Source of the DNA: Eukaryota sp. GEM-RC1
Lineage: Eukaryota
Assembly: GCA_040285855.1 (NCBI GenBank)
Contig: JAUFOQ010000010.1
Coordinates: forward strand, 1,488,001-1,552,000
DNA: 64,000 nucleotides
Direction: 5' to 3'
Positions 39,521 to 61,400 of this stretch are shown here, piece after piece. A program made the translations under genes and the position numbers. The notes beneath the pieces were generated by a model. It worked only from the letters and a program-made list of their open reading frames with translations. It did no database searches and was not told where the DNA came from. Position 1 is the first letter of the stretch, and every line of letters starts with the position of its first letter.

Positions 39521-40800
39521 TTACAAGTCCACTGCTACCTGAATTGGACTAATAACACCCTGGAAATCCTTATCAGACAATATAAAGCCACAAAAGTCAC
39601 CAAAAGTCAAAGATCTGTTTAACCTGATTAATTCACATAAATCAATGACTGACTTATTGGAGAAACAACAAATATTCAAAGTTAGTCTCTTGATTGTGAA
39701 ACATTGAGACAAGGACTTTGGTTGTGACATTGCTTCACCACTACATGTAGATATATTCCAAAACTTGGGTGACAAACAAATCACACATCATATTTACCTT
39801 GTTTGGTATAACCCAAGGAGTGAATCAAAAGATTGTAAACGACCCAGGCTTGGTGAAGAAGCGCTTCATAGAAACAAATGTGTTGATATTAAAAATATGA
39901 TGTATTAGAGATATAAAGGTACCTCAAACTTTGATTCAGACACAGGGGTGATACTAATACATCATCGTAGTCACATTGTGGAAGTACATTATAAGTGTTT
40001 GGAGAAAGAAGGAGATGGTTAAGAGCATCAGACTGTATGAGAAACAACATAGAGTTATTAAAGGAGATGGTTAAGAGCATCAGACTGTATGAGAAACAAC
40101 ATAGAGTTATTAAAGGAGATGGTATTCTTCCAAACAATATAAGAATTTCGGTAGTGTGACCTCCTGATTCAAGTACAGTCTACCCTCCCATTAGTGCAAG
40201 CTTTTGGGCAGACCTTAATGGGAGGTTTTGTTTGTACAGACATGAACAGCAGACGACAGCCTTTTATGATATATAAACCAACAAACTACGACTATTGTGC
40301 ACCATTTGGTGATGAACTGAAGATGACACGGATAATCGTCGTTCAAATATAAGTGGTGGGATTGAGGGAAAATATTGCAGAACACTCAACCATCAGCAAA
40401 CAGCAATAATCTCTCAGATTTCTGCTAAATAGTTGAGGGAGAGAAGGGGAGAACTAACGGGGAGGGCGATATAAGAGCGAGAAAGGTCAAGGACGGACCT
40501 GAAACTACCAATATAGGAAAGGAGAAAGTTTCAGATACTCAAAGAAACAAATCACAGAGAACTTGTTCTGAGTTAGTACGCAGAATTGAATATGTGAAGA
40601 GAAGAACCCCTTCAAAGCATTGAGACGACAATAGCAGCATTAACATTGCTAGAGAAGAGTGTTCTTAAAGAAGAGAATCTACAAGAGGGATATGAAAAGA
40701 TAGGGTAATTTATGCAAGAAGTACAGTCACACCTAAAATCGTATTCCCAAGATGACAACGAAAAGAGCAGATGATTGGTGATGAAAAAGGGGAAGCTCAT
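39521..40800 (-). pseudogene. Highly decayed LRR-family gene containing a 52-bp tandem duplication (40009-40123)
   Basis: IKRLTLNICCFSNKSVIDLCELIRLNRSLT resembles ITDLRINNCCFTNEAFAVLCDLIKTSTSLT. 5' boundary uncertain. Confidence 0.5.
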
Positions 40801-41084: not shown

Positions 41085-43051
41085 ATGTCTCACTATCTCT
41101 GTGATATTTGTCATGAAATTCTCAAGAATCCGGTAACTACTTGGTGTGGCCACACCTTTTGTATGTCGGACTTGCAGGAATGGCTTGTTTCTCATAACGG
41201 ATGTCCGATCTGTCGAGCTGAAGTGGACAAGTCAAGGCTGTGTCCTAACTACAAGTTGAAAGAAGCTGTTGAAGCCTTTGTTGCTGGTCAAGGTGAGACT
41301 ATTTGTTTTGAGTGTGATGAAGCTGCTGCCACTTGTTATTGCGCAGAATGTGACGCCGATTTCTGTGACAAATGTTTTAACCCTGCTCATCGCCCCAAGT
41401 TGCTACGATCTCATGTTGCTGTCCCCCTAAATAAGAAGCATGCCTACCTTATTCCCAAGTGCCCCAGCCACAGTATGAAGTCGTTAGAGTTGTTCTGCAC
41501 CTTCTGCTCCGTCGCCCTTTGCTCCACTTGTGCTTTCCTTGGTGACCATGACCAACACAAAAGAAGTTGCTTCCCTTTGACGAAGGTCGAACCTCTGTTG
41601 AAAAGAATATCAACTCAATTAATCAAGAGTTGTCGTTAGCCATTGAAAAAATATCTCAGTCAGCTGAAGCTGCTATCCAGCAAGCAACAAGTGGTTTTGT
41701 CCAACTCAAAGAAAGTCTGACTGTCCTGCTCCAAGAAACTATGTTAGACTCTACCATTATGAATGACTTACAATCTGGGAAACCTGTCATGTTCAAGCCA
41801 AAGATCAGCGAAAAATTCACTACCACCACTTCAACCCTTCTCAACAACCAATCTGATATCATCTCCTCTTTAAATGAAGAACTTTTCTCCATCCACTCCG
41901 ATGCTTCTCGTCGTTTGACCTCTCTTTCCGTTGATTCGGAGTCTAGTGTTGGTTCTGATAGGCTTCTAGATGACACTCCTTTACCAATCAAGTCTATTGA
42001 AAGTGTATGCTCTGTACAACAAGTTGAAGAGAAGAAACTTGTTATTGATTGGAGCAAGCTTAGTTCTAAGTTGAAGAATTGTTATGATCAGATGGTGAGA
42101 AATGAGGTTTCTACGATCAATCTATATTACAACTCAATTGGTAAAGAAGGCGCTATTGCAATTGCTGAAGCTTTGAAGGTGAATTCTTCAGTTTCTCAGA
42201 TCGATCTAAATAACAACTCAATTGGTCCTGAAGGTGCTATTGCAATTGCTGAAGCTTTGAAGGTGAATTCTTCAGTTTCTACGATTGGTCTAGGTAACAA
42301 CTCAATTGGTCCTGAAGGTGCTATTGCAATTGCTGAAGCTTTGAAGGTGAATTCTTCAGTTTCTACGATCAATCTACATAGCAACTCAATTGGTCCTGAA
42401 GGTGCTATTGCTGAAGCTTTAAAGGTGAATTCTTCAGTTTCTACGATCGACCTATGTTTCAACTCAATTGGTCCTGAAGGTGCTATTGCAATTGCTGAAG
42501 CTTTGAAGGTGAATTCTTCAGTTTCTACGATCAATCTACATAGCAACTCAATTGGTCCTGAAGGTGCTATTGCAATTGCTGAAGCTTTAAAGGTGAATTC
42601 TTCAGTTTCTACGATCGACCTATGTTTCAACTCAATTGGTCCTGAAGGTGCTATTGCAATTGCTGAAGCTTTGAAGGTGAATTCTTCAGTTTCTACGATT
42701 TATCTACATAGCAACTCAATTGGTCCTGAAGGTGCTATTGCAATTGCTGAAGCTTTAAAGGTGAATTCTTCAGTTTCTACGATTTATCTACATAGCAACT
42801 CAATTGGTCCTGAAGGTGCTATTGCAATTGCTGAAGCTTTAAAGGTGAATTCTTCAGTTTCTACGATCAATCTAGGTGGTAACTCAATTGGTCCTGAAGG
42901 TGCTATTGCAATTGCTGAAGCTTTGAAGGTGAATTCTTCAGTTTCTACGATTTATCTACATAGCAACTCAATTAACAGTCAAACACAACAGTCGTTAAAA
43001 TCACTGCACAAGAATAGAATTAGTTTTCAAAGATATTTTCCTCTGATATAA
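41085..43051 (+). CDS. TRIM-like RING - B-box - B-box - coiled coil - LRR protein (putative E3 ligase); one single-base frameshift near 41590
   Basis: C3HC4 RING CDIC..CGHTFC..CPIC (sixth ligand appears to be Asp); B-box1 CFEC..CAECDADFCDKC..H..H; B-box2 CPSH..FCTFC..LCSTC..H..H; helical region; 11 28-aa LRRs. One extra A in GTCGAACC joins ORFs 41085 and 41567. Confidence 0.88.
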
Positions 43052-43461
43052 AGATCACCCCATGATAAGTCACACATGAACAAATATCAATGCGGTTTAG
43101 CAGTTGTTCATACACAGATTGATTTTCAGTTTTACCCGGTAATTAAGACTCGTCATATCGAAAAGTTCATTTGCTATTGTTTTCAACAACACCACTTATT
43201 AATTGGTATCTGGAAATGATGTAACATTATACTATATGTTTCGAAATATTTCGAATCACCGACACATTGTCTCCTCATAAACACGGTTGTATTTTTTCTC
43301 AAAAAACAGCTTAATTGTCCTTGAGTTGAGTGATGCTTTAGTGATCTGTGATTTAATTGGAAATCTTGTCACACAATTGTCTTAACATACAAAGCAGGTT
43401 TTTGTTTATCTTAAATTGAGTTTATTATCTAACATTATCTAAGCTTCTGTTTACTGGATAT

Positions 43462-45273
43462 GTGTTCTATGAACCGGCTAGAATTTCCGATTTCTATCTA
43501 CATTACAACTCAATTGGTAAAGAAGGCGCTATTGCAATTGCTGAAGCTTTGAAGGTGAATTCGTCTGTTTCTACGATTGGTCTAGGTAACAACTCAATTG
43601 GTCCTGAAGGTGCTATTGCAATTGCTGAAGCTTTGAAGGTGAATTCTTCAGTTTCTACGATCAATCTACATAGCAACTCAATTGGTCCTGAAGGTGCTAT
43701 TGCAATTGCTGAAGCTTTGAAGGTGAATTCTTCAGTTTCTACGATTTATCTACATAGCAACTCAATTGGTCCTGAAGGTGCTATTGCAATTGCTGAAGCT
43801 TTGAAGGTGAATTCTTCAGTTTCTACGATTTATCTACATAGCAACTCAATTGGTCCTGAAGGTGCTATTGCAATTGCTGAAGCTTTGAAGGTGAATTCTT
43901 CAGTTTCTACGATTTATCTACATAGCAACTCAATTGGTCCTGAAGGTGCTATTGCAATTGCTGAAGCTTTGAAGGTGAATTCTTCAGTTTCTACGATTTA
44001 TCTACATAGCAACTCAATTGGTCCTGAAGGTGCTATTGCAATTGCTGAAGCTTTGAAGGTGAATTCTTCAGTTTCTACGATCAATCTAGGTGGTAACTCA
44101 ATTGGTAATGAAGGCGCTATTGCAATTGCTGAAGCTTTAAAGGTGAATTCTTCAGTTTCTACGATCAATCTACATAGCAACTCAATTGGTCCTGAAGGTG
44201 CTATTGCAATTGCTGAAGCTTTGAAGGTGAATTCTTCAGTTTCTACGATTGGTCTAGGTAACAACTCAGTTGGTCCTGAAGGCGCTATTGCAATTGCTGA
44301 AGCTTTGAAGGTGAATTCTTCAGTTTCTACGATCAATCTATATTACAACTCAGTTGGTCCTGAAGGCGCTACTGCAATTGCTGAAGCTTTGAAGGTGAAT
44401 TCTTCAGTTTCTGCGATTTATCTACATAGCAACTCAATTGGTCCTGAAGGTGCTATTGCAATTGCTGAAGCTTTGAAGGTGAATTCTTCAGTTTCTACGA
44501 TCAATCTACATAGCAACTCAATTGGTCCTGAAGGTGCTATTGCAATTGCTGAAGCTTTGAAGGTGAATTCTTCAGTTTCTACGATCAATCTACATAGCAA
44601 CTCAATTGGTCCTGAAGGTGCTATTGCAATTGCTGAAGCTTTGAAGGTGAATTCTTCAGTTTCTACGATCAATCTAGGTGGTAACTCAATTGGTAATGAA
44701 GGCGCTATTGCAATTGCTGAAGCTTTAAAGGTGAATTCTTCAGTTTCTACGATCGACCTATGTTTCAATTCAATTGGTCCTGAAGGTGCTATTGCAATTG
44801 CTGAAGCTTTAAAGGTGAATTCTTCAGTTTCTACGATCAATCTACATAGCAACTCAATTGGTCCTGAAGGTGCTATTGCAATTGCTGAAGCTTTAAAGGT
44901 GAATTCTTCAGTTTCTACGATCAATCTACATAGCAACTCAATTGGTCCTGAAGGTGCTATTGCAATTGCTGAAGCTTTGAAGGTGAATTCTTCAGTTTCT
45001 ACGATTTATCTACATAGCAACTCAATTGGTCCTGAAGGTGCTATTGCAATTGCTGAAGCTTTGAAGGTGAATTCTTCAGTTTCTACGATTTATCTACATA
45101 GCAACTCAATTGGTCCTGAAGGTGCTATTGCAATTGCTGAAGCTTTGAAGGTGAATTCTTCAGTTTCTACGATCAATCTACATAGCAACTCAATTAACAG
45201 TCAAACACAACAGTCGTTAAAATCACTGCACAAGAATAGAATTAGTTTTCAAAGATATTTTCCTCTGATATAA
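43462..45273 (+). CDS. LRR-only cassette 1 (20 units), no in-frame ATG
   Basis: Order GHYYYYNHGWYHHNDHHYYH (G=GLGN, H=NLHS, Y=YLHS, N=NLGG, D=DLCF, W=NLYY). Track start is GTG; upstream in-frame TGA at 43417. Confidence 0.7.
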   Translation: MFYEPARISDFYLHYNSIGKEGAIAIAEALKVNSSVSTIGLGNNSIGPEGAIAIAEALKVNSSVSTINLHSNSIGPEGAIAIAEALKVNSSVSTIYLHSNSIGPEGAIAIAEALKVNSSVSTIYLHSNSIGPEGAIAIAEALKVNSSVSTIYLHSNSIGPEGAIAIAEALKVNSSVSTIYLHSNSIGPEGAIAIAEALKVNSSVSTINLGGNSIGNEGAIAIAEALKVNSSVSTINLHSNSIGPEGAIAIAEALKVNSSVSTIGLGNNSVGPEGAIAIAEALKVNSSVSTINLYYNSVGPEGATAIAEALKVNSSVSAIYLHSNSIGPEGAIAIAEALKVNSSVSTINLHSNSIGPEGAIAIAEALKVNSSVSTINLHSNSIGPEGAIAIAEALKVNSSVSTINLGGNSIGNEGAIAIAEALKVNSSVSTIDLCFNSIGPEGAIAIAEALKVNSSVSTINLHSNSIGPEGAIAIAEALKVNSSVSTINLHSNSIGPEGAIAIAEALKVNSSVSTIYLHSNSIGPEGAIAIAEALKVNSSVSTIYLHSNSIGPEGAIAIAEALKVNSSVSTINLHSNSINSQTQQSLKSLHKNRISFQRYFPLI

Positions 45274-45803
45274 AGATCACCCCATGATAAGTCACACATG
45301 AACAAATATCAATGCGGTTTAGCAGTTGTTCATACACAGATTGATTTTCAGTTTTACCCGGTAATTAAGACTCGTCATATCGAAAAGTTCATTTGCTATT
45401 GTTTTCAACAACACCACGTATTAATTGGTATCTGGAAATGATGTAACATTATACTATATGTTTCGAAATATTTCGAATCACCGACACATTGTCTCGTCAT
45501 AAACACGGTTGTATTTTTTCTCAAAAAACAGCTTAATTGTCCTTGAGTTGAGTGATGCTTTGATTATTCTCAGTGATTTATAAGATGTACAGTATCCTTT
45601 TGTATCTATTCCATAGATATTTTAGTCATGGTAATTTATTAAATATTGGTCAAAATTAGGTTGTTCGTTAGTTTCTGTTTTAGTGATCTGTGATTTAATT
45701 GGAAATCTTGTCACACAATTGTCTTAACATACAAAGCAGGTTTTTGTTTATCTTAAATTGAGTTTATTATCTAACATTATCTAAGCTTCTGTTTACTGGA
45801 TAT

Positions 45804-46691
45804 GTGTTCTATGAACCGGCTAGAATTTCCGATTTCTATCTACATTACAACTCAATTGGTAAAGAAGGCGCTATTGCAATTGCTGAAGCTTTGAAGGTGA
45901 ATTCGTCTGTTTCTACGATTGGTCTAGGTAACAACTCAATTGGTCCTGAAGGTGCTATTGCAATTGCTGAAGCTTTGAAGGTGAATTCTTCAGTTTCTAC
46001 GATCAATCTACATAGCAACTCAATTGGTCCTGAAGGTGCTATTGCAATTGCTGAAGCTTTGAAGGTGAATTCTTCAGTTTCTACGATCAATCTAGGTGGT
46101 AACTCAATTGGTAATGAAGGCGCTATTGCAATTGCTGAAGCTTTAAAGGTGAATTCTTCAGTTTCTACGATCAATCTACATAGCAACTCAATTGGTCCTG
46201 AAGGTGCTATTGCAATTGCTGAAGCTTTGAAGGTGAATTCTTCAGTTTCTACGATCAATCTAGGTGGTAACTCAATTGGTAATGAAGGCGCTATTGCAAT
46301 TGCTGAAGCTTTAAAGGTGAATTTTTCAGTTTCTACGATCGACCTATGTTTCAACTCAATTGGTCCTGAAGGTGCTATTGCAATTGCTGAAGCTTTGAAG
46401 GTGAATTCTTCAGTTTCTACGATCAATCTACATAGCAACTCAATTGGTCCTGAAGGTGCTATTGCAATTGCTGAAGCTTTGAAGGTGAATTCTTCAGTTT
46501 CTACGATTTATCTACATAGCAACTCAATTGGACCTGAAGGTGCTATTGCAATTGCTGAAGCTTTGAAGGTGAATTCTTCAGTTTCTACGATTTATCTACA
46601 TAGCAACTCAATTAACAGTCAAACACAACAGTCGTTAAAATCACTGCACAAGAATAGAATTAGTTTCCAAAGATATTTTCCTCTGATATAA
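45804..46691 (+). CDS. LRR-only cassette 2 (9 units), no in-frame ATG
   Basis: Order GHNHNDHYY; same lead-in and C-cap as the other cassettes. Confidence 0.7.
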   Translation: MFYEPARISDFYLHYNSIGKEGAIAIAEALKVNSSVSTIGLGNNSIGPEGAIAIAEALKVNSSVSTINLHSNSIGPEGAIAIAEALKVNSSVSTINLGGNSIGNEGAIAIAEALKVNSSVSTINLHSNSIGPEGAIAIAEALKVNSSVSTINLGGNSIGNEGAIAIAEALKVNFSVSTIDLCFNSIGPEGAIAIAEALKVNSSVSTINLHSNSIGPEGAIAIAEALKVNSSVSTIYLHSNSIGPEGAIAIAEALKVNSSVSTIYLHSNSINSQTQQSLKSLHKNRISFQRYFPLI

Positions 46692-47221
46692 AGACCACCC
46701 CATGATAAGTCACACATGAACAAATATCAATGCGGTTTAGCAGTTGTTCATACACAGATTGATTTTCAGTTTTACCCGGTAATTAAGACTCGTCATATCG
46801 AAAAGTTCATTTGCTATTGTTTTCAACAACACCACTTATTAATTGGTATCTGGAAATGATGTAACATTATACTATATGTTTCGAAATATTTCGAATCACC
46901 GACACATTGTCTCGTCATAAACACGGTTGTATTTTTTCTCAAAAAACAGCTTAATTGTCCTTGAGTTGAGTGATGCTTTGATTATTCTCAGTGATTTATA
47001 AGATGTACAGTATCCTTTTGTATCTATTCCATAGATATTTTAGTCATGGTAATTTATTAAATATTGGTCAAAATTAGGTTGTTCGTTAGTTTCTGTTTTA
47101 GTGATCTGTGATTTAATTGGAAATCTTGTCACACAATTGTCTTAACATACAAAGCAGGTTTTTGTTTATCTTAAATTGAGTTTATTATCTAACATTATCT
47201 AAGCTTCTGTTTACTGGATAT

Positions 47222-49285
47222 GTGTTCTATGAACCGGCTAGAATTTCCGATTTCTATCTACATTACAACTCAATTGGTAAAGAAGGCGCTATTGCAATTG
47301 CTGAAGCTTTGAAGGTGAATTCGTCTGTTTCTACGATTGGTCTAGGTAACAACTCAATTGGTCCTGAAGGTGCTATTGCAATTGCTGAAGCTTTGAAGGT
47401 GAATTCTTCAGTTTCTACGATCAATCTACATAGCAACTCAATTGGTCCTGAAGGTGCTATTGCAATTGCTGAAGCTTTGAAGGTGAATTCTTCAGTTTCT
47501 ACGATCAATCTAGGTGGTAACTCAATTGGTAATGAAGGCGCTATTGCAATTGCTGAAGCTTTGAAGGTGAATTCTTCAGTTTCTACGATCAATCTAGGTG
47601 GTAACTCAATTGGTAATGAAGGCGCTATTGCAATTGCTGAAGCTTTAAAGGTGAATTCTTCAGTTTCTACGATCAATCTACATAGCAACTCAATTGGTCC
47701 TGAAGGTGCTATTGCAATTGCTGAAGCTTTGAAGGTGAATTCTTCAGTTTCTACGATCAATCTAGGTGGTAACTCAATTGGTAATGAAGGCGCTATTGCA
47801 ATTGCTGAAGCTTTAAAGGTGAATTTTTCAGTTTCTACGATCGACCTATGTTTCAACTCAATTGGTCCTGAAGGTGCTATTGCAATTGCTGAAGCTTTGA
47901 AGGTGAATTCTTCAGTTTCTACGATCAATCTACATAGCAACTCAATTGGTCCTGAAGGTGCTATTGCAATTGCTGAAGCTTTGAAGGTGAATTCTTCAGT
48001 TTCTACGATTTATCTACATAGCAACTCAATTGGTCCTGAAGGTGCTATTGCAATTGCTGAAGCTTTGAAGGTGAATTCTTCAGTTTCTACGATCAATCTA
48101 CATAGCAACTCAATTGGTCCTGAAGGTGCTATTGCAATTGCTGAAGCTTTGAAGGTGAATTCTTCAGTTTCTACGATCAATCTAGGTGGTAACTCAATTG
48201 GTAATGAAGGCGCTATTGCAATTGCTGAAGCTTTAAAGGTGAATTCTTCAGTTTCTACGATCGACCTATGTTTCAACTCAATTGGTCCTGAAGGTGCTAT
48301 TGCAATTGCTGAAGCTTTGAAGGTGAATTCTTCAGTTTCTACGATCAATCTACATAGCAACTCAATTGGTCCTGAAGGTGCTATTGCAATTGCTGAAGCT
48401 TTGAAGGTGAATTCTTCAGTTTCTACGATTTATCTACATAGCAACTCAATTGGTCCTGAAGGTGCTATTGCAATTGCTGAAGCTTTGAAGGTGAATTCTT
48501 CAGTTTCTACGATCAATCTACATAGCAACTCAATTGGTCCTGAAGGTGCTATTGCAATTGCTGAAGCTTTGAAGGTGAATTCTTCAGTTTCTACGATCAA
48601 TCTAGGTGGTAACTCAATTGGTAATGAAGGCGCTATTGCAATTGCTGAAGCTTTAAAGGTGAATTCTCCAGTTTCTACGATCGACCTATGTTTCAACTCA
48701 ATTGGTCCTGAAGGTGCTATTGCAATTGCTGAAGCTTTGAAGGTGAATTCTTCAGTATCTACGATCAATCTACATAGCAACTCAATTGGTCCTGAAGGTG
48801 CTATTGCAATTGCTGAAGCTTTGAAGGTGAATTCTTCAGTTTCTACGATCAATCTAGGTGGTAACTCAATTGGTAATGAAGGCGCTATTGCAATTGCTGA
48901 AGCTTTAAAGGTGAATTTTTCAGTTTCTACGATCGACCTATGTTTCAACTCAATTGGTCCTGAAGGTGCTATTGCAATTGCTGAAGCTTTGAAGGTGAAT
49001 TCTTCAGTTTCTACGATTTATCTACATAGCAACTCAATTGGACCTGAAGGTGCTATTGCAATTGCTGAAGCTTTGAAGGTGAATTCTTCAGTTTCTACGA
49101 TTTATCTACATAGCAACTCAATTGGACCTGAAGGTGCTATTGCAATTGCTGAAGCTTTGAAGGTGAATTCTTCAGTTTCTACGATTTATCTACATAGCAA
49201 CTCAATTAACAGTCAAACACAACAGTCGTTAAAATCACTGCACAAGAATAGAATTAGTTTCCAAAGATATTTTCCTCTGATATAA
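47222..49285 (+). CDS. LRR-only cassette 3 (23 units), no in-frame ATG
   Basis: Order GHNNHNDHYHNDHYHNDHNDYYY. Confidence 0.7.
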   Translation: MFYEPARISDFYLHYNSIGKEGAIAIAEALKVNSSVSTIGLGNNSIGPEGAIAIAEALKVNSSVSTINLHSNSIGPEGAIAIAEALKVNSSVSTINLGGNSIGNEGAIAIAEALKVNSSVSTINLGGNSIGNEGAIAIAEALKVNSSVSTINLHSNSIGPEGAIAIAEALKVNSSVSTINLGGNSIGNEGAIAIAEALKVNFSVSTIDLCFNSIGPEGAIAIAEALKVNSSVSTINLHSNSIGPEGAIAIAEALKVNSSVSTIYLHSNSIGPEGAIAIAEALKVNSSVSTINLHSNSIGPEGAIAIAEALKVNSSVSTINLGGNSIGNEGAIAIAEALKVNSSVSTIDLCFNSIGPEGAIAIAEALKVNSSVSTINLHSNSIGPEGAIAIAEALKVNSSVSTIYLHSNSIGPEGAIAIAEALKVNSSVSTINLHSNSIGPEGAIAIAEALKVNSSVSTINLGGNSIGNEGAIAIAEALKVNSPVSTIDLCFNSIGPEGAIAIAEALKVNSSVSTINLHSNSIGPEGAIAIAEALKVNSSVSTINLGGNSIGNEGAIAIAEALKVNFSVSTIDLCFNSIGPEGAIAIAEALKVNSSVSTIYLHSNSIGPEGAIAIAEALKVNSSVSTIYLHSNSIGPEGAIAIAEALKVNSSVSTIYLHSNSINSQTQQSLKSLHKNRISFQRYFPLI

Positions 49286-49815
49286 AGATCACCCCATGAT
49301 AAGTCACACATGAACAAATATCAATGCGGTTTAGCAGTTGTTCATACACAGATTGATTTTCAGTTTTACCCGGTAATTAAGACTCGTCATATCGAAAAGT
49401 TCATTTGCTATTGTTTTCAACAACACCACTTATTAATTGGTATCTGGAAATGATGTAACATTATACTATATGTTTCGAAATATTTCGAATCACCGACACA
49501 TTGTCTCGTCATAAACACGGTTGTATTTTTTCTCAAAAAACAGCTTAATTGTCCTTGAGTTGAGTGATGCTTTGATTATTCTCAGTGATTTATAAGATGT
49601 ACAGTATCCTTTTGTATCTATTCCATAGATATTTTAGTCATGGTAATTTATTAAATATTGGTCAAAATTAGGTTGTTCGTTAGTTTCTGTTTTAGTGATC
49701 TGTGATTTAATTGGAAATCTTGTCACACAATTGTCTTAACATACAAAGCAGGTTTTTGTTTATCTTAAATTGAGTTTATTATCTAACATTATCTAAGCTT
49801 CTGTTTACTGGATAT

Positions 49816-50787
49816 GTGTTCTATGAACCGGCTAGAATTTCCGATTTCTATCTACATTACAACTCAATTGGTAAAGAAGGCGCTATTGCAATTGCTGAAG
49901 CTTTGAAGGTGAATTCGTCTGTTTCTACGATTGGTCTAGGTAACAACTCAATTGGTCCTGAAGGTGCTATTGCAATTGCTGAAGCTTTGAAGGTGAATTC
50001 TTCAGTTTCTACGATCAATCTACATAGCAACTCAATTGGTCCTGAAGGTGCTATTGCAATTGCTGAAGCTTTGAAGGTGAATTCTTCAGTTTCTACGATC
50101 AATCTAGGTGGTAACTCAATTGGTAATGAAGGCGCTATTGCAATTGCTGAAGCTTTAAAGGTGAATTCTTCAGTTTCTACGATCGACCTATGTTTCAACT
50201 CAATTGGTCCTGAAGGTGCTATTGCAATTGCTGAAGCTTTGAAGGTGAATTCTTCAGTTTCTACGATCAATCTACATAGCAACTCAATTGGTCCTGAAGG
50301 TGCTATTGCAATTGCTGAAGCTTTGAAGGTGAATTCTTCAGTTTCTACGATCAATCTAGGTGGTAACTCAATTGGTAATGAAGGCGCTATTGCAATTGCT
50401 GAAGCTTTAAAGGTGAATTTTTCAGTTTCTACGATCGACCTATGTTTCAACTCAATTGGTCCTGAAGGTGCTATTGCAATTGCTGAAGCTTTGAAGGTGA
50501 ATTCTTCAGTTTCTACGATCAATCTACATAGCAACTCAATTGGTCCTGAAGGTGCTATTGCAATTGCTGAAGCTTTGAAGGTGAATTCTTCAGTTTCTAC
50601 GATTTATCTACATAGCAACTCAATTGGACCTGAAGGTGCTATTGCAATTGCTGAAGCTTTGAAGGTGAATTCTTCAGTTTCTACGATTTATCTACATAGC
50701 AACTCAATTAACAGTCAAACACAACAGTCGTTAAAATCACTGCACAAGAATAGAATTAGTTTCCAAAGATATTTTCCTCTGATATAA
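49816..50787 (+). CDS. LRR-only cassette 4 (10 units), no in-frame ATG
   Basis: Order GHNDHNDHYY. Confidence 0.7.
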   Translation: MFYEPARISDFYLHYNSIGKEGAIAIAEALKVNSSVSTIGLGNNSIGPEGAIAIAEALKVNSSVSTINLHSNSIGPEGAIAIAEALKVNSSVSTINLGGNSIGNEGAIAIAEALKVNSSVSTIDLCFNSIGPEGAIAIAEALKVNSSVSTINLHSNSIGPEGAIAIAEALKVNSSVSTINLGGNSIGNEGAIAIAEALKVNFSVSTIDLCFNSIGPEGAIAIAEALKVNSSVSTINLHSNSIGPEGAIAIAEALKVNSSVSTIYLHSNSIGPEGAIAIAEALKVNSSVSTIYLHSNSINSQTQQSLKSLHKNRISFQRYFPLI

Positions 50788-51317
50788 AGATCACCCCATG
50801 ATAAGTCACACATGAACAAATATCAATGCGGTTTAGCAGTTGTTCATACACAGATTGATTTTCAGTTTTACCCGGTAATTAAGACTCGTCATATCGAAAA
50901 GTTCATTTGCTATTGTTTTCAACAACACCACTTATTAATTGGTATCTGGAAATGATGTAACATTATACTATATGTTTCGAAATATTTCGAATCACCGACA
51001 CATTGTCTCGTCATAAACACGGTTGTATTTTTTCTCAAAAAACAGCTTAATTGTCCTTGAGTTGAGTGATGCTTTGATTATTCTCAGTGATTTATAAGAT
51101 GTACAGTATCCTTTTGTATCTATTCCATAGATATTTTAGTCATGGTAATTTATTAAATATTGGTCAAAATTAGGTTGTTCGTTAGTTTCTGTTTTAGTGA
51201 TCTGTGATTTAATTGGAAATCTTGTCACACAATTGTCTTAACATACAAAGCAGGTTTTTGTTTATCTTAAATTGAGTTTATTATCTAACATTATCTAAGC
51301 TTCTGTTTACTGGATAT

Positions 51318-52205
51318 GTGTTCTATGAACCGGCTAGAATTTCCGATTTCTATCTACATTACAACTCAATTGGTAAAGAAGGCGCTATTGCAATTGCTGA
51401 AGCTTTGAAGGTGAATTCGTCTGTTTCTACGATTGGTCTAGGTAACAACTCAATTGGTCCTGAAGGTGCTATTGCAATTGCTGAAGCTTTGAAGGTGAAT
51501 TCTTCAGTTTCTACGATCAATCTACATAGCAACTCAATTGGTCCTGAAGGTGCTATTGCAATTGCTGAAGCTTTGAAGGTGAATTCTTCAGTTTCTACGA
51601 TCAATCTAGGTGGTAACTCAATTGGTAATGAAGGCGCTATTGCAATTGCTGAAGCTTTAAAGGTGAATTCTTCAGTTTCTACGATCGACCTATGTTTCAA
51701 CTCAATTGGTCCTGAAGGTGCTATTGCAATTGCTGAAGCTTTGAAGGTGAATTCTTCAGTTTCTACGATCAATCTACATAGCAACTCAATTGGTCCTGAA
51801 GGTGCTATTGCAATTGCTGAAGCTTTGAAGGTGAATTCTTCAGTTTCTACGATCAATCTAGGTGGTAACTCAATTGGTAATGAAGGCGCTATTGCAATTG
51901 CTGAAGCTTTAAAGGTGAATTTTTCAGTTTCTACGATCGACCTCTGTTTCAACTCAATTGGTCCTGAAGGTGCTATTGCAATTGCTGAAGCTTTGAAGGT
52001 GAATTCTTCAGTTTCTACGATCAATCTACATAGCAACTCAATTGGTCCTGAAGGTGCTATTGCAATTGCTGAAGCTTTGAAGGTGAATTCTTCAGTTTCT
52101 ACGATTTATCTACATAGCAACTCAATTAACAGTCAAACACAACAGTCGTTAAAATCACTGCACAAGAATAGAATTAGTTTCCAAAGATATTTTCCTCTGA
52201 TATAA
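51318..52205 (+). CDS. LRR-only cassette 5 (9 units), no in-frame ATG
   Basis: Order GHNDHNDHY. Confidence 0.7.
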   Translation: MFYEPARISDFYLHYNSIGKEGAIAIAEALKVNSSVSTIGLGNNSIGPEGAIAIAEALKVNSSVSTINLHSNSIGPEGAIAIAEALKVNSSVSTINLGGNSIGNEGAIAIAEALKVNSSVSTIDLCFNSIGPEGAIAIAEALKVNSSVSTINLHSNSIGPEGAIAIAEALKVNSSVSTINLGGNSIGNEGAIAIAEALKVNFSVSTIDLCFNSIGPEGAIAIAEALKVNSSVSTINLHSNSIGPEGAIAIAEALKVNSSVSTIYLHSNSINSQTQQSLKSLHKNRISFQRYFPLI

Positions 52206-52735
52206 AGATCACCCCATGATAAGTCACACATGAACAAATATCAATGCGGTTTAGCAGTTGTTCATACACAGATTGATTTTCAGTTTTACCCGGTAATTAA
52301 GACTCGTCATATCGAAAAGTTCATTTGCTATTGTTTTCAACAACACCACTTATTAATTGGTATCTGGAAATGATGTAACATTATACTATATGTTTCGAAA
52401 TATTTCGAATCACCGACACATTGTCTCGTCATAAACACGGTTGTATTTTTTCTCAAAAAACAGCTTAATTGTCCTTGAGTTGAGTGATGCTTTGATTATT
52501 CTCAGTGATTTATAAGATGTACAGTATCCTTTTGTATCTATTCCATAGATATTTTAGTCATGGTAATTTATTAAATATTGGTCAAAATTAGGTTGTTCGT
52601 TAGTTTCTGTTTTAGTGATCTGTGATTTAATTGGAAATCTTGTCACACAATTGTCTTAACATACAAAGCAGGTTTTTGTTTATCTTAAATTGAGTTTATT
52701 ATCTAACATTATCTAAGCTTCTGTTTACTGGATAT

Positions 52736-54799
52736 GTGTTCTATGAACCGGCTAGAATTTCCGATTTCTATCTACATTACAACTCAATTGGTAAAGAAGG
52801 CGCTATTGCAATTGCTGAAGCTTTGAAGGTGAATTCGTCTGTTTCTACGATTGGTCTAGGTAACAACTCAATTGGTCCTGAAGGTGCTATTGCAATTGCT
52901 GAAGCTTTGAAGGTGAATTCTTCAGTTTCTACGATCAATCTACATAGCAACTCAATTGGTCCTGAAGGTGCTATTGCAATTGCTGAAGCTTTGAAGGTGA
53001 ATTCTTCAGTTTCTACGATCAATCTAGGTGGTAACTCAATTGGTAATGAAGGCGCTATTGCAATTGCTGAAGCTTTAAAGATGAATTCTTCAGTTTCTAC
53101 GATCGACCTATGTTTCAACTCAATTGGTCCTGAAGGTGCTATTGCAATTGCTGAAGCTTTGAAGGTGAATTCTTCAGTTTCTACGATCAATCTACATAGC
53201 AACTCAATTGGTCCTGAAGGTGCTATTGCAATTGCTGAAGCTTTGAAGGTGAATTCTTCAGTTTCTACGATCAATCTAGGTGGTAACTCAATTGGTAATG
53301 AAGGCGCTATTGCAATTGCTGAAGCTTTAAAGGTGAATTTTTCAGTTTCTACGATCGACCTCTGTTTCAACTCAATTGGTCCTGAAGGTGCTATTGCAAT
53401 TGCTGAAGCTTTGAAGGTGAATTCTTCAGTTTCTACGATCAATCTACATAGCAACTCAATTGGTCCTGAAGGTGCTATTGCAATTGCTGAAGCTTTGAAG
53501 GTGAATTCTTCAGTTTCTACGATTTATCTACATAGCAACTCAATTGGTCCTGAAGGTGCTATTGCAATTGCTGAAGCTTTGAAGGTGAATTCTTCAGTTT
53601 CTACGATTTATCTACATAGCAACTCAATTGGTCCTGAAGGTGCTATTGCAATTGCTGAAGCTTTGAAGGTGAATTCTTCAGTTTCTACGATCAATCTAGG
53701 TGGTAACTCAATTGGTAATGAAGGCGCTATTGCAATTGCTGAAGCTTTAAAGGTGAATTCTTCAGTTTCTACGATCAATCTACATAGCAACTCAATTGGT
53801 CCTGAAGGTGCTATTGCAATTGCTGAAGCTTTGAAGGTGAATTCTTCAGTTTCTACGATCAATCTATATTACAACTCAGTTGGTCCTGAAGGCGCTACTG
53901 CAATTGCTGAAGCTTTGAAGGTGAATTCTTCAGTTTCTGCGATTTATCTACATAGCAACTCAATTGGTCCTGAAGGTGCTATTGCAATTGCTGAAGCTTT
54001 GAAGGTGAATTCTTCAGTTTCTGCGATTTATCTACATAGCAACTCAATTGGTCCTGAAGGTGCTATTGCAATTGCTGAAGCTTTGAAGGTGAATTCTTCA
54101 GTTTCTACGATCAATCTACATAGCAACTCAATTGGTCCTGAAGGTGCTATTGCAATTGCTGAAGCTTTGAAGGTGAATTCTTCAGTTTCTACGATCAATC
54201 TACATAGCAACTCAATTGGTCCTGAAGGTGCTATTGCAATTGCTGAAGCTTTGAAGGTGAATTCTTCAGTTTCTACGATCAATCTAGGTGGTAACTCAAT
54301 TGGTAATGAAGGCGCTATTGCAATTGCTGAAGCTTTAAAGGTGAATTCTTCAGTTTCTACGATCGACCTATGTTTCAACTCAATTGGTCCTGAAGGTGCT
54401 ATTGCAATTGCTGAAGCTTTGAAGGTGAATTCTTCAGTTTCTACGATCAATCTACATAGCAACTCAATTGGTCCTGAAGGTGCTATTGCAATTGCTGAAG
54501 CTTTGAAGGTGAATTCTTCAGTTTCTACGATTTATCTACATAGCAACTCAATTGGTCCTGAAGGTGCTATTGCAATTGCTGAAGCTTTGAAGGTGAATTC
54601 TTCAGTTTCTACGATTTATCTACATAGCAACTCAATTGGTCCTGAAGGTGCTATTGCAATTGCTGAAGCTTTGAAGGTGAATTCTTCAGTTTCTACGATC
54701 AATCTACATAGCAACTCAATTAACAGTCAAACACAACAGTCGTTAAAATCACTGCACAAGAATAGAATTAGTTTTCAAAGATATTTTCCTCTGATATAA
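52736..54799 (+). CDS. LRR-only cassette 6 (23 units), chimeric
   Basis: Order GHNDHNDHYYNHWYYHHNDHYYH. Its only in-frame ATG is an internal GTG>ATG change at 53081. Confidence 0.7.
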   Translation: MFYEPARISDFYLHYNSIGKEGAIAIAEALKVNSSVSTIGLGNNSIGPEGAIAIAEALKVNSSVSTINLHSNSIGPEGAIAIAEALKVNSSVSTINLGGNSIGNEGAIAIAEALKMNSSVSTIDLCFNSIGPEGAIAIAEALKVNSSVSTINLHSNSIGPEGAIAIAEALKVNSSVSTINLGGNSIGNEGAIAIAEALKVNFSVSTIDLCFNSIGPEGAIAIAEALKVNSSVSTINLHSNSIGPEGAIAIAEALKVNSSVSTIYLHSNSIGPEGAIAIAEALKVNSSVSTIYLHSNSIGPEGAIAIAEALKVNSSVSTINLGGNSIGNEGAIAIAEALKVNSSVSTINLHSNSIGPEGAIAIAEALKVNSSVSTINLYYNSVGPEGATAIAEALKVNSSVSAIYLHSNSIGPEGAIAIAEALKVNSSVSAIYLHSNSIGPEGAIAIAEALKVNSSVSTINLHSNSIGPEGAIAIAEALKVNSSVSTINLHSNSIGPEGAIAIAEALKVNSSVSTINLGGNSIGNEGAIAIAEALKVNSSVSTIDLCFNSIGPEGAIAIAEALKVNSSVSTINLHSNSIGPEGAIAIAEALKVNSSVSTIYLHSNSIGPEGAIAIAEALKVNSSVSTIYLHSNSIGPEGAIAIAEALKVNSSVSTINLHSNSINSQTQQSLKSLHKNRISFQRYFPLI

Positions 54800-55329
54800 A
54801 GATCACCCCATGATAAGTCACACATGAACAAATATCAATGCGGTTTAGCAGTTGTTCATACACAGATTGATTTTCAGTTTTACCCGGTAATTAAGACTCG
54901 TCATATCGAAAAGTTCATTTGCTATTGTTTTCAACAACACCACGTATTAATTGGTATCTGGAAATGATGTAACATTATACTATATGTTTCGAAATATTTC
55001 GAATCACCGACACATTGTCTCGTCATAAACACGGTTGTATTTTTTCTCAAAAAACAGCTTAATTGTCCTTGAGTTGAGTGATGCTTTGATTATTCTCAGT
55101 GATTTATAAGATGTACAGTATCCTTTTGTATCTATTCCATAGATATTTTAGTCATGGTAATTTATTAAATATTGGTCAAAATTAGGTTGTTCGTTAGTTT
55201 CTGTTTTAGTGATCTGTGATTTAATTGGAAATCTTGTCACACAATTGTCTTAACATACAAAGCAGGTTTTTGTTTATCTTAAATTGAGTTTATTATCTAA
55301 CATTATCTAAGCTTCTGTTTACTGGATAT

Positions 55330-56301
55330 GTGTTCTATGAACCGGCTAGAATTTCCGATTTCTATCTACATTACAACTCAATTGGTAAAGAAGGCGCTAT
55401 TGCAATTGCTGAAGCTTTGAAGGTGAATTCGTCTGTTTCTACGATTGGTCTAGGTAACAACTCAATTGGTCCTGAAGGTGCTATTGCAATTGCTGAAGCT
55501 TTGAAGGTGAATTCTTCAGTTTCTACGATCAATCTACATAGCAACTCAATTGGTCCTGAAGGTGCTATTGCAATTGCTGAAGCTTTGAAGGTGAATTCTT
55601 CAGTTTCTACGATCAATCTAGGTGGTAACTCAATTGGTAATGAAGGCGCTATTGCAATTGCTGAAGCTTTAAAGGTGAATTCTTCAGTTTCTACGATCGA
55701 CCTATGTTTCAACTCAATTGGTCCTGAAGGTGCTATTGCAATTGCTGAAGCTTTGAAGGTGAATTCCTCAGTTTCTACGATCAATCTACATAGCAACTCA
55801 ATTGGTCCTGAAGGTGCTATTGCAATTGCTGAAGCTTTGAAGGTGAATTCTTCAGTTTCTACGATCAATCTAGGTGGTAACTCAATTGGTAATGAAGGCG
55901 CTATTGCAATTGCTGAAGCTTTAAAGGTGAATTTTTCAGTTTCTACGATCGACCTATGTTTCAACTCAATTGGTCCTGAAGGTGCTATTGCAATTGCTGA
56001 AGCTTTGAAGGTGAATTCTTCAGTTTCTACGATCAATCTACATAGCAACTCAATTGGTCCTGAAGGTGCTATTGCAATTGCTGAAGCTTTGAAGGTGAAT
56101 TCTTCAGTTTCTACGATTTATCTACATAGCAACTCAATTGGACCTGAAGGTGCTATTGCAATTGCTGAAGCTTTGAAGGTGAATTCTTCAGTTTCTACGA
56201 TTTATCTACATAGCAACTCAATTAACAGTCAAACACAACAGTCGTTAAAATCACTGCACAAGAATAGAATTAGTTTCCAAAGATATTTTCCTCTGATATA
56301 A
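55330..56301 (+). CDS. LRR-only cassette 7 (10 units), same protein as cassette 4
   Basis: Order GHNDHNDHYY; a synonymous TCT>TCC change near 55767 distinguishes it from cassette 4. Confidence 0.7.
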   Translation: MFYEPARISDFYLHYNSIGKEGAIAIAEALKVNSSVSTIGLGNNSIGPEGAIAIAEALKVNSSVSTINLHSNSIGPEGAIAIAEALKVNSSVSTINLGGNSIGNEGAIAIAEALKVNSSVSTIDLCFNSIGPEGAIAIAEALKVNSSVSTINLHSNSIGPEGAIAIAEALKVNSSVSTINLGGNSIGNEGAIAIAEALKVNFSVSTIDLCFNSIGPEGAIAIAEALKVNSSVSTINLHSNSIGPEGAIAIAEALKVNSSVSTIYLHSNSIGPEGAIAIAEALKVNSSVSTIYLHSNSINSQTQQSLKSLHKNRISFQRYFPLI

Positions 56302-56603
56302 AGATCACCCCATGATAAGTCACACATGAACAAATATCAATGCGGTTTAGCAGTTGTTCAAACACAGATTGATTTTCAGTTTTACCCGGTAATTAAGACT
56401 CGTCATATCGAAAAGTTCATTTGCTATTGTTTTCAACCACACCACGTATTAATTGGTATCTGGAAATGATGTAACATTATACTATATGTTTCGAAATATT
56501 TCGAATCACCGACACATTGTTTCGTCATAAACACGGTTGTATTTTTTCTCAAAAAACAGCTTAATTGTCCTTGAGTTGAGTGATGCTTTGATTATTCTCA
56601 GTG

Positions 56604-57787
56604 ACTCTAACAACGTAGATATTAAGTGAACGTTACCAATGGAATCGATAAGCTCGAAAATTTTGAAAACTTCAACCCGATACTCATCTGGAAAATTTAA
56701 AAGTTCACTGGTTTTTGAGTCCAAATGATGGTCATTCTTGTAAAGCTCAATTAAACATTTAAACAACCAAACAGGATCAACAACAGGTAACAGAGAAGTG
56801 ATAAAAGAAACTCTTAGGGGGAAAGGTTGTTCATATTCCATTTCTTCAAAAATTTCAAAAAGCTCCGAATTTTGATCAACGAAGTAGAATTGGTTATGTT
56901 CATTAGAAATTTTTAAGAGAGATAAAACATCTTCTTCTGAAAAGAATTCGAATCAAGAAAGTTTTGGCAAGCTGATTCCAACTGGTCTACTTGGAAATAA
57001 ACTGCTAATTGAAAAAGTTGTAAAATATTTGAAATTTTGAAATCAATGAAATTCTGGTAATGAAAAAGGTCGAAAAAAAGACACAAAACATCTTCAGATA
57101 CGCCCGAAAATTCATCAGTATATTCAAAAATTCTCACGTTTGAATCTTCAAAATCACAAGTAAATACATTCTGAAACATTTTTGAAAACGAAATCAATAG
57201 AACAGAATTCAATTTAATAGATGCATTGTTGTAAGAAACATGTACATCTTTAGTGCAAGCTTCTACAATTTTTAAAACTATCTTTTTGAGTCTAATTTAA
57301 AATTGTTACTCTCAAAGTTTGTAAGTCCATTTGTTATTCTCTCAGTAACAAACTCACTTAACTCCTGGAACTGAAGAAGAGAAGCAATGATAGAAAGCGT
57401 AGGGACATTTTCAGGAGTAACAGTAAGTGATTGTCCATAGAGAGTTGACAGGACTGAGAAGAAGATATCAGGATCTGTAAGAAAAGGAAATAGTGGGAAT
57501 TCTACTGTGGTAGAGTACAGACTCTTCTCCCTAAGAACAGGACTGAAAGCACCGACGACGAAGGAATGACAGTGGAAAGAGTTGCCATCGTAGGTAATGA
57601 CAGTGTCAGTAAGATGGTTGTCTCTTTGAAGGGAATAGAGGTTGTTGCAGAAGCAATCTTAAGGGAAGCAATAAGTATTTGGAAGGTCAAGACTATCTAG
57701 AACTCGAGGGCGTTTAGAAGGAGGACTTTTGACGTCAGTGTTGTTGGAAGTTTTAGAAGAGAGTCGAGCATCCCTTGAACTGGGCAT
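56604..57787 (-). pseudogene. BTB-BTB protein paralog, 3'-truncated at the LRR array boundary
   Basis: Colinear with 15722-14525. In-frame TAA near 57660 (TCA in the paralog) and shifts. Homology stops after ISTLLE at 56604. Confidence 0.85.
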
Positions 57788-58471
57788 AGTGACTAAGATG
57801 AATAGGCAAAGTACAGTGCAAAGACAGTTAACTACTTACTGTAGACAACACTGTAAATGGTGGTTCAATTAGTTGTATGTTCAATCCAAATCATAAAACA
57901 TAGGTTAGTTGACATGACATCATCAAACGACCAACAAGTGGAGTCAGTGTGACTCGTGCCGTCTCCTAACTCACATTGAAAGAGATACTGTGATTGCTTC
58001 TGTTCACCATAAAGCACAACACTTAATTACAGAAGAGATCACAGCAGCTGGTTTTCTGACCACCATGAGCCAACATCCCAACACGAATCTCCGATGATCG
58101 TCGAAAATATCTTCGTCTGATAATTATGTGTGTAAATCTAAACATGACATTATACTGTATTCAAATTTAAACCTCATTTGCAGAATAATCGCCAGTGATG
58201 ACAGCTGGACAGTACTTACATTCAACTCTGGGATCATGGTTTCCACATCCATTATCCGGAGTTTGGTCTTGAAGAACAATATTTTGAATATGTTTTGAAC
58301 TTAACCACCAAATCAGCCGTTTTGAAACTCAAAGTCATCTTTACATTTTCATTCAATAAATTCAATTGATTTAAATTTCTTTGGCAACATCCTTATTGCG
58401 AGCAAAGACGATAGTTGAATTTTGGACATTCTTTTCTAGTGATTAGTACTTTAACAAAATGCTCTTCATAT

Positions 58472-61400
58472 ATTTATCAAACGAACCAGAATTGTGAAAA
58501 TATTAGTTCTTTTGAAGCGGCTGGTATGTTCTCGTTTCTTCCAATAACTGTTTAATGATTGTATATAGCTTTCAATAAATCCACATGAGGGTACTTCAAT
58601 CATGAATATGGCATTAATGACCAAAATAAGGTCAATGGCAGTAGATATTGAACGTGATTTCCTCTTCGTGCGAAGCTATTGAGTGGATGAGAAATACAAA
58701 GGTGTCCCTGTTTTTGGTGTAGCAAAGGGTTCGTTTTTGCCAATAATTGAATAAAAGTAATGTTACTTTAGAAAAGATGAATAAGCTAGATGGTAAAACA
58801 ACAACAACAGTTTAAATTACTGAGAATAACTTAAGGTAACGTAAGGTAAAGAATAATATTATTCTTGTTTGACTATTAGTGAGTTTACTATAATCTTGAC
58901 AGAAATCCTTCAAATACTACAGTAATGTCCATTTCCTTGAATGATTGCTCCTCTTCCATTGTTTTTGGTGAAGGAAGAACATTGTGAAATCTTGTCTTAT
59001 AGAACCTAGACATGCATCTGCTCTTCTGATTCTATCTACTCCATCGATCTGGGTATTCACCTCTCTCACGTTACTTCTCGCCTCATAACTACCATCTCTG
59101 CTATGAGTTCTACAATCCTTACAATCTCATCCTCCTCACTTATCAAATTGCTATGGATTACTTGGAGGAGTTATCATTCTCCACGATTCCAGTCTCAAAG
59201 CGTCTTCTTCTTTCATCCATCATACTAGTGATGATGCACTCTATGCTTTCCAAAAGTCATCTGCCTCTGTTCATAACATCACTTATCACATCACTTCTGC
59301 TGATGGTGACCTCTTCTATGTGTATTTCTCCCCTTTCTACGGCTTCTTCATCAACTCTTCCTACAGTCATGCCAAGAATGGTGATGTCGATTTCCTTGTC
59401 AAATATACTCTGCTCTTTGCTTTTGCTGAACTCCAGTTTCTCCTCTGCTGAGGAGAGGATGCTGGTTATATCGACGGTTTTTGGTCTTTGAAGTTGACAT
59501 TATCAGTGTGTCTGATGTTTACCAGAGTACCATTGAGTTCTTCTAAAAAACTACCAAATTAACTTATCCCAAAGAGTGTTTGCTGACGTTATCAACACGT
59601 GTCAGTAACACGTGTTTTCCTCATTTGGTCAGCTACTTCCCCGTATTACTCTGATGATGTGTATATTGTTAATCTCAGAATCATCTATACCAATTAGATT
59701 GACCATGATCTCTTCTTGTTTCCATTTTACTTGTTTCAACGATATTTTGAGTGATCACATCATCACACGTGTTTTGGGCGTGTTAAATTTTTGTCTGCAT
59801 TTTTAATTTTTATTGGTGGAATAATCTGGTACCGTATCACACGTGTTTTTGGTGGCTCTTTTTAGTATCACTTCACAATGTTTTGTACCCTGTTTAAAAA
59901 TCATGTTCTGGACCAGTTGGTGTTTTTACAGTCTAAGGTTTACATGGTCATCTTCTTTGTGTAGTTCTATGCAGTGGAGAAAGAAATTTTCCACACTGAG
60001 AATTTCACTATTTCACGAATTTCCATACATCATTCATATTTAGTTTTTTTATTTAGATTATTTTTAGTTCAGTTCGATTTAGCAAAAATCTCCTAGATCT
60101 ATGTATCTTAGATCTTTGTATATCGTTGGAGTTTTGATATACGGGCCAGAGTTTTAGCCATATTGGGACAATTTCAAGGTTTGAGAGGATGGCTTTGACT
60201 ATAGCTTTGTCAGACAAGGCATTCATAGTTTTGTCGTTGTCTAGAAGAATTGCTTGTGTTCTCTGGAAAACGCGATGTAATCGGTTGATGAAATCACCCC
60301 ATCGTTCCTCTGGGTCGTTGATTGACCAGTTCATTTTGACTTTGTTTATCTCATTGAGCGCAAGAGTTACGTCTGTAAACTGTGTACGTTTAAGCAATGC
60401 TATCCAAAGTTGAAGAGGGGTGGTACCGTTCCATTCGCGTGACATAGACAATTGAGTCTGGATGTTGAATTTTACGAACCGTTGAATATACGAAGGGATC
60501 ATAACCACTGTTCGAACAAAGTCGAAGAAGTGGCGTGTTGAATGTTAGGAGTCGAAACAATTCTGATCTAACTTACACTTAGTAATGAAGGCTTGAGCTC
60601 TAGTATGACCTTTTTGTTTGGACGAGCTTTAAAGAGCACGTGCAGCACGTTGAGGAACTTGGATTCTATTTCTAAGCATGAGCAATCTACAATAACAGCA
60701 ATCAGAGTTTTCACAAAAGACCAATTTTGTAAAATTGTCTTTTTGACTTTTTCGTAGTTGATAACGGTAATATAGATCATTCGGTACACCGTTTGCTTGA
60801 ATTGTAACATCCTTCACAAACAACACTACCCAGGAATTTTACGCACTTAGAGGAGTATCCAAAGTATCGTTCAGCTCTTTCAGTTGTCCAACCGAGATGC
60901 TGCGACATTCCTCTTTCAAGCTGGCTTTCTTAAAGGCTAATATATTCAGCAGAGTTGACGTTTTCCAGAGAAACTCCGATAGAGAATGTATACAGTTTTC
61001 TTTTGTCGTTGTCAGTAGTTGACCAGTTCAACACCCATCCACTAATGGTCTCTGCGGTAACAGATAAATTCGTACGTTCCACCACATTCAAACAAAAACT
61101 TGGGATCTGCGTCAGGATGTGCAAGTAATTGGTGATGTTGAACGAGAGAGTTATAAACGGAGATGAAAATGTCCTGGAGGTTAGTTGGCTTGATATAATA
61201 TTCTTTGTAAATGCTCTGATAATTGAGTAGCACGCTGATATGAAGAGTCATTCAACGCCTTGAAAAAGATGGGACTTAATAGTTCAAGAATCATGCCAGA
61301 CTGTACTGAAAGAAAACTTTGTAAGGATTGAAACCCTCTTTCAGGACGAAACTGGATAACCAAAGGTATGATATTCTCATTAGAGTTGGTGATTGTCTTG

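Follow-up and report, generated by a model that had tools for sequence, protein, structure and literature searches.

The window analysed here, a stretch of 64,000 bp from Eukaryota sp. GEM-RC1, contains eight arrays, of 11, 21, 10, 24, 11, 10, 24 and 11 units respectively. Together they comprise 122 anchored units of 84 bp, none of which carries a frameshift. Array 1 forms the 3' end of a RING–B-box–coiled-coil–leucine-rich repeat (LRR) gene at 41085-43051, referred to below as the head gene, while arrays 2-8 are seven headless tandem copies, which lack the N-terminal part and the start codon and share their C-terminal tail and stop with array 1. Read on the forward strand, the head gene begins at 41085-41639 with a RING and two B-boxes (Pfam zf-C3HC4, U-box and two zf-B_box matches) and continues at 41552-42106 with a coiled coil, a low-confidence linker and an LRR cap (helices H4-59, H82-120 and H167-177 in the structure model). 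Array 1 follows at 42107-43051; its 11 units, in the order FGEADADBBCB and with a single in-frame 6-bp deletion, run into the C-terminal tail and a TAA stop.

The headless copies lie on the same strand. Copy 1 (43483-45273) is an open frame of 21 units without a methionine, in the order HEABBBBCAEFBAACDAABBA; copy 2 (45825-46691) has 10 units (HEACACDABB), copy 3 (47243-49285) 24, copy 4 (49837-50787) 11 (HEACDACDABB), copy 5 (51339-52205) 10 (HEACDACDAB), copy 6 (52757-54799) 24, and copy 7 (55351-56301) 11, in an order identical to that of copy 4. The order in copy 6 resembles a start of the copy-4/5 type fused to an end of the copy-1 type. Six of the seven contain no methionine, copy 6 has a single internal one at residue 130, and in the headless copies an in-frame stop stands 66 bases ahead of the first unit. 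Between the arrays, a spacer of about 300 bp of 3' flank and a 261-bp junction piece (45274-45824, with the junction piece at 45576-45836) recurs between all later copies, and the spacer alignment shows the same flank and junction piece with a 120-bp deletion in the first spacer (43052-43482). The spacers are 99-100% identical to one another, those of the later copies 99.5-100%. The last 3' flank (56302-56604) ends at the exact start of a truncated BTB-Sel1 paralog, which is homologous to 14526-15710. The junction piece has no match outside the array within the window, its coded peptide was absent from the retrieved proteins compared with it, and an Rfam search of 38-60 kb returned no matches. 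We also asked whether the piece might be the head gene's cap in decayed form, and rejected this, the alignment being no better than that of shuffles. Three candidate LRR open reading frames (ORFs) had no exact match in the protein collection, so that no gene model for the copies emerged from it.

The RING, two B-boxes and coiled coil stand in the order of TRIM/RBCC proteins, split in the window by a one-base shift and contiguous in the paralogs P0001, P0004 and P0309. Using tblastn with the intact P0004, we located the slip in a run of A near 41558. The same shift occurs in four of the six members of the head gene's cluster, the other two reading through, and all six distinct differences beyond this frameshift, when read in the coiled-coil frame, are silent, so the read-through form was the selected one. 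Since the assembly of the named relatives was based on R9.4 nanopore reads corrected with short reads, according to the available text of PMC11316075, a recurring homopolymer error would be the likeliest explanation, the alternatives being real lesions or recoding.

TRIM/RBCC E3 ligases share with the head gene the RING, the two B-boxes, the coiled coil and the presence of a C-terminal module. Here, that module is an LRR array, which to our knowledge is not the C-terminal module of any TRIM class; the likeness to animal TRIMs is one of domain order. The C-terminal domains of TRIM proteins select targets; by analogy, the head protein is a putative E3 ligase whose LRR may select variable targets. 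Its RING carries an Asp at the sixth ligand position. The RING–B-box–coiled-coil–LRR order was not found in the literature searched, and among 447 retrieved proteins a RING together with a B-box occurred in this family only; both negatives are weak, the second because retrieval was ranked by the LRR. An identity as an NLR (STAND) protein was rejected, as neither the head ORFs nor the intact paralogs have a Pfam match to the central NACHT or NB-ARC ATPase. Among named proteins, those of Eukaryota sp. GEM-RC1 itself are nearest, at 80-92% identity, and the coiled-coil and cap part is 90-92% identical to P0002 and P0003 over the aligned part. A scan of metagenomes with the scaffold DNA pattern gave no matches, and one with the coiled-coil/cap protein gave 274 pattern matches, none of them confirmed. 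By name, GEM-RC1 probably equals Skoliomonas sp. GEMRC, described as a free-living metamonad in the available text of PMC11316075.

Each unit encodes a 28-residue RI-type LRR of beta/alpha build that conforms to the LxxLxLxxNxI pattern (Pfam LRR_6). The structure model (pLDDT 80.1, built on 16 sequences) places a strand and a helix in every unit, and the fold matches LRRC34, ribonuclease inhibitor (RI), NOD2 and NLRP3 in the PDB, with Foldseek E values down to 5e-18 for RI and LRRC34. The original prediction had assigned three variable sites to the strand and its concave face. In the model, site 1 does lie in the beta-strand (codons 3-5), but sites 2 and 3 (codons 7 and 8) fall in the loop that follows, and codon 13 is at the start of the helix. 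That codons 5, 7 and 8 face a ligand on the concave side is a prediction from secondary structure, from a result in Ectocarpus (PMC3341825) and from the geometry of RI. Across RI-type LRRs in general, variability likewise peaks at these positions (entropy 3.4-3.8 bits in 957 units from outside GEM-RC1).

The codons listed for the variable sites are exactly those present in the 122 units: AAT 60, TAT 35, GAC 17, GGT 9 and GAT 1 at site 1; CAT 71, GGT 30, TGT 17, TAT 3 and AAT 1 at site 2; AGC 64, GGT 21, TTC 17, AAC 10 and TAC 10 at site 3; and CCT 86, AAT 20 and AAA 8 at site 4. All 15 codons at the strand sites end in a pyrimidine, again as noted. The surrounding scaffold was said to be nearly invariant even at synonymous positions, and the units are indeed near-identical, with 23 distinct internal units that differ at few bases; the scaffold is not fully invariant, though, because three synonymous polymorphisms are common (codon 4, ATC 78/ATT 37; codon 15, GGT 83/GGC 31; codon 23, TTG 89/TTA 25). 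Likewise, the variation at the three sites is real, but the prediction counted copies as if they were independent, and it made no mention that seven of the eight arrays are without an N-terminal part and a start codon. The sites are linked: only eight strand triplets are observed, against a mean of 41.9 and a minimum of 34 in 5000 permutations with independent sites, and the effective sample is therefore eight, not 122. The head gene already contains seven of the eight strand variants. The copies contribute one more, fixed at their first unit; what varies between copies is the order and number of units, not the repertoire. The unit contains four disjoint four-gamete intervals, which point to exchange below the level of the unit or to repeated mutation. 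We infer that recombination is the agent that shuffles the units, although these conflicts could also reflect repeated mutation.

To quantify selection, we counted changes by per-codon parsimony on the eight variants, which gives lower bounds. At least 11 amino-acid-changing steps are required at codons 5, 7 and 8, and the whole unit requires 12 synonymous and 22 non-synonymous ones. When all units are taken together, the ratio of pN at these three codons to pS over the whole unit was 2.6-3.3 (p 0.005-0.019); in the 11 units of the head gene it was 5.4-6.8 (p 0.0001-0.0007), and the a priori xxLxLxx set gave a pN/pS of 2.1-5.0 (p 0.0006-0.041). With an omega of 0-0.21, the scaffold is under purifying selection. 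Synonymous change is also high inside codons 4-8 (pS 0.68-1.24, versus 0.15-0.46 outside, p 0.06-0.14), so the ratio to local pS is only about 1.2-2.4. This last result lends some weight to an alternative in which constraint at exposed positions is merely relaxed and clustered mismatches block conversion, such that the variable block escapes homogenisation and no positive selection is needed; the variability of these positions in all RI-type LRRs and the frameshift of the head gene as assembled are on the same side.

We compared the counts with neutral simulations in which exposed codons were free and the scaffold fixed, under gene conversion with or without mismatch blocking; the simulations leave out import from paralogs and selection on codon usage, and their samples are autocorrelated. 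In steady state, none of the 38 settings (24 + 14) produced a sample with 11 amino-acid states and at most four synonymous ones. Among transient runs, 8 of 3818 matched samples (9-13 amino-acid states) had four or fewer synonymous states, and under the most favourable setting 6 of 297 did so, which speaks for relaxed constraint. The same contrast recurs, however, across the family. Considering proteins with at least five units (22 of 64 from GEM-RC1 and 47 of 240 others had too few), scaffold identity reached 0.85 or more in 9 of 42 GEM-RC1 proteins, with variable-site identities of 0.24-0.64, and in 19 of 193 others, and the head gene itself has 0.93 on the scaffold against 0.44 at the variable sites. 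A contrast found in 9 of 42 family proteins is hard to see as a rare transient. Because pN at the three codons exceeds whole-unit pS 2.6- to 6.8-fold and the neutral simulations rarely match the data, diversifying selection on a homogenised scaffold, as had been proposed, is likely. The codon counts suggest selection that is positive rather than relaxed, and we regard relaxation as unlikely, if still the most credible of the competing explanations.

It had also been suggested that the NNY form of the variable codons was a special feature. This appears to be mostly an amino-acid effect. Asn, Tyr, Asp, His, Cys and Phe are encoded by NNY codons alone, and they account for 11 of the 15 strand-site codons; of the rest, one is AGC and three are GGT. 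In eight ORFs of the window, GGT is the most frequent choice for Gly (40 of 98), and the third base is a pyrimidine in 64% of 2949 codons. Across 312 distinct family units, 82% of site 1 and 53% of site 3 are taken up by the same six residues. Lys, Glu, Gln or Trp occurs in 8 of the 31 triplets of nine close paralogs, so the NNY form is not a rule of the whole family, and the difference from the 0 of 8 found here is compatible with chance (Fisher p=0.17), as is the pattern under a single-step null (p 0.08-0.26). Among family proteins with at least five triplets, 5 of 33 are likewise without these four residues. Some preference for particular amino acids must nevertheless be assumed, because with amino acids left free only 69 of 3818 matched simulation samples were all-NNY, and because the pattern is unusual when the whole family is treated as independent draws (p 0.007-0.017). 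The simplest account is a preference for Asn, Asp, Tyr, His, Cys and Phe at these positions, combined with a shallow ancestry; the variants are only a few first- and second-base steps apart.

An all-NNY set of codons also recalls diversity-generating retroelements (DGRs), whose hallmarks are paired template and variable repeats and adenine-directed change, and whose AAY-derived variable codons are NNY, as described in the available text of PMC5006420. Reverse transcriptase (RT)-driven adenine mutagenesis would fit the 15 of 15 NNY codons, and 18 of 27 variable columns include A among their states. The formal derivation of the codons from AAY by substitution at adenines fails for a single template, since sites 1 and 3 have both C and T as third bases. 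The observation that other adenines stay fixed was accurate: five of the six synonymous adenines are unchanged in 107 of 107 internal units, and the sixth is altered in two. Moreover, none of the 462 ordered pairs among 22 distinct full units shows the at least five adenine mismatches with at most one other mismatch that we required of a template and its variable repeat, and the window contains no template-like stretch outside the array, where the best match, in other LRR genes, agrees at 54 of 84 nt. No RT family was found in the 116 frames scanned (14 + 102, the latter from 130 of at least 70 aa outside the array), although degraded frames might evade Pfam. The variants are linked rather than combinatorial, and Lys, Glu, Gln and Trp occur at the sites in paralogs. 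The unit variation is thus not adenine-directed; on the evidence of this window, we reject the locus as a eukaryotic DGR, and consider DGR-like mutagenesis of the variable codons scarcely credible.

This leaves the headless copies, which most likely arose by ordinary tandem duplication. Partial tandem duplication is frequent in this setting, and this makes a passive origin the more likely one. Another, unrelated LRR gene of the same window (8567-12957) has a headless tandem duplicate of its own (2197 bp, 99.9%), and in the paralog P0309 three cap+LRR blocks, whose joins are predicted, represent a head and two partial copies with a different breakpoint, its own scaffold variants running through all three. 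Copies free of stops are expected by chance anyway (p 0.64). States not found in the head gene comprise seven non-synonymous and seven synonymous ones (omega 0.34-0.41, p 0.04-0.08), a synonymous lean that pure junk would not predict; none of the 14 is at codons 5, 7 or 8 (p 0.2, uninformative by itself). Markers specific to the copies include synonymous changes at codons 6, 12 and 15 and a Phe at codon 27.

One could also speculate that the copies are maintained as a donor library, comparable to vls or VLR systems, whose unit orders would reach the expressed head gene through conversion or crossover, or that they serve as alternative 3' ends joined by splicing. Such a role is suggested by the seven open but startless frames beside one complete gene, by the differences in unit order, by the weak synonymous lean described above and by the renewed appearance of a head with partial copies in P0309. 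The copies bring only one new strand variant, though, fixed at the first unit, copies 4 and 7 are identical in order, the lack of stops needs no maintenance, the unrelated LRR gene is duplicated in the same headless manner, and breakpoints vary between loci. A scan with a guessed intron consensus, which may not be that of this lineage, gave 11 candidates, and the end of none of them coincided with the start of a copy. Silent cassettes would be expected to offer variety that the expressed gene lacks; here, beyond the one extra strand variant, the copies vary in order and number only. In Borrelia vls, as far as the available text of PMC11499132 describes it, one complete gene likewise adjoins a contiguous array of partial copies. 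The vls cassettes, however, supply sequence variety through directional conversion. We therefore hold a donor or splicing role to be improbable. No more probable is its boldest extension, anticipatory recognition by a TRIM-like ubiquitin ligase whose LRR surface is rewritten from adjacent, silent, pre-shuffled cassettes at several family loci, and it is an equally long shot that such rewriting would be, by analogy, an intron-free counterpart of vls or of lamprey VLR assembly in a free-living metamonad.

The near-identity of the spacers, the frequency of broken frames across the window and the recurring one-base loss in the A run could mean that errors of assembly contributed to the array or to the number of its copies. 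We consider this very improbable, as the copies differ in unit order and in private linked variants, one spacer has a 120-bp deletion, the 122 units are free of frameshifts, and separate paralogs show the scaffold/variable contrast too, along with the strand variants NHS and DNN. The pattern is real, and represents a known mechanism in a new setting. Taken together, we think it probable that an RI-type LRR array of a RING–B-box–coiled-coil gene carries eight unit variants on a near-identical scaffold, that diversifying selection likely keeps the variation at the predicted ligand-contact codons, that unequal crossover and gene conversion likely reorder the units, and that ordinary tandem duplication likely produced the seven headless copies.

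The closest parallels are the fungal NLRs with high internal conservation, such as the WD40 repeats of Podospora HNWD and the ANK and TPR repeats, in which, according to the available texts of PMC13449251 and PMC4986451, units are gained, lost and shuffled and near-identical repeats carry a few hypervariable, positively selected positions on the binding surface. As in these proteins, homogenised repeats carry hypervariable binding positions here: scaffold identity in the head gene (0.93) lies above the 85% repeat identity that marks high internal conservation, and a few hypervariable, positively selected positions emerge from parsimony pN/pS and the simulations, more weakly against local pS; the number and order of repeats vary among copies and paralogs. 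The locus differs from them in its RI-type LRR, its RING–B-box–coiled-coil head without a NACHT or NB-ARC match, and its adjoining headless copies. Protist LRR arrays with unit-wise reshuffling are also on record, in so far as the available texts go: in the Ectocarpus ROCO genes, repeats are reshuffled unit by unit and positively selected sites lie on the concave face (PMC3341825), and unequal crossover has been invoked for the 90-bp-exon LRR genes of Tetrahymena (PMC6564038). There, each repeat is an exon and the heads are different, whereas the units here are contiguous, with no introns between them. A more distant parallel is PRDM9, where the available text of PMC3890296 describes selection at the recognition residues of a zinc-finger coding minisatellite; with a different fold and ligand, the shared coding-minisatellite character is an analogy only. 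The unit of the PRDM9 minisatellite likewise has a length of 84 bp.

If the headless copies did prove to be donors, the locus would add a new branch of eukaryotes to those with programmed diversification. On the preferred reading, that of selection, recombination and ordinary duplication, it is a compact test bed for the reshuffling of repeat order, and a candidate for cell-autonomous defence in a free-living metamonad, of which no case is described in the literature searched. It would thereby extend the regime of homogenised scaffold and hypervariable contacts beyond the NLRs of fungi and the LRR receptors of algae, where it is already familiar, to the TRIM-like E3 gene of such an organism.

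The gene that heads the LRR arrays, encoding a RING-B-box-coiled-coil-LRR protein (window 41085-43051, plus strand), is split by the loss of a single base in an A run at 41545-41570, and the same loss is found in four of the six members of its cluster. On the 3' side of the run, the changes among cluster members are silent in the coiled-coil frame. A sequencing error is the likeliest origin of the loss, while slippage or frameshift recoding may also underlie the shift. About 1 kb upstream of this gene lies a perfect 52-bp tandem repeat of 2.2 copies (40009-40123).

Partial tandem copying is also seen in other LRR genes. A tandem duplication of 2197 bp at 8567-12957, with copies 99.9% identical, has produced a headless 3' copy (10754-11500) of another gene of the family (7221-9305). 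In P0309, a 985-residue paralog of the head gene, three cap-plus-LRR blocks are joined in one gene model; that is, a head and two partial tandem copies that differ in unit content, with the joins stemming from the gene model.

Three BTB(-BTB)-Sel1 paralogs, 83-92% identical to one another, lie on the minus strand at 56604-57787, 14526-15726 and 1-812, the first of them truncated precisely where the LRR array ends on its right side. A second B-box region (18644-18997) has 36% identity to the family head and is followed by unrelated frames. A dispersed 2.7-kb repeat, present in two copies (32357-35020 and 58463-61188; 91.6% identical), gave no match in Pfam and is probably a mobile element. The broken frames at 16220-18000, likewise without a Pfam match, bear a probable resemblance to the C-terminal region of an ORF from a non-LTR retrotransposon, and a MULE transposase fragment lies at 2253-2492 on the minus strand.

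Between unit variants C (42857-42890) and E (42275-42308), codon 8 differs as though it had been copied from the adjacent codon on one side or the other (GGT or AAC), which hints that micro-slippage may generate some of the multi-base changes. In the relatives P0080, P0096, P0125 and P0060, this LRR module is joined to heads of other kinds (BTB, protein kinase and reticulon), and the contrast between conserved scaffold and variable sites is also present in the BTB and kinase members of the family.
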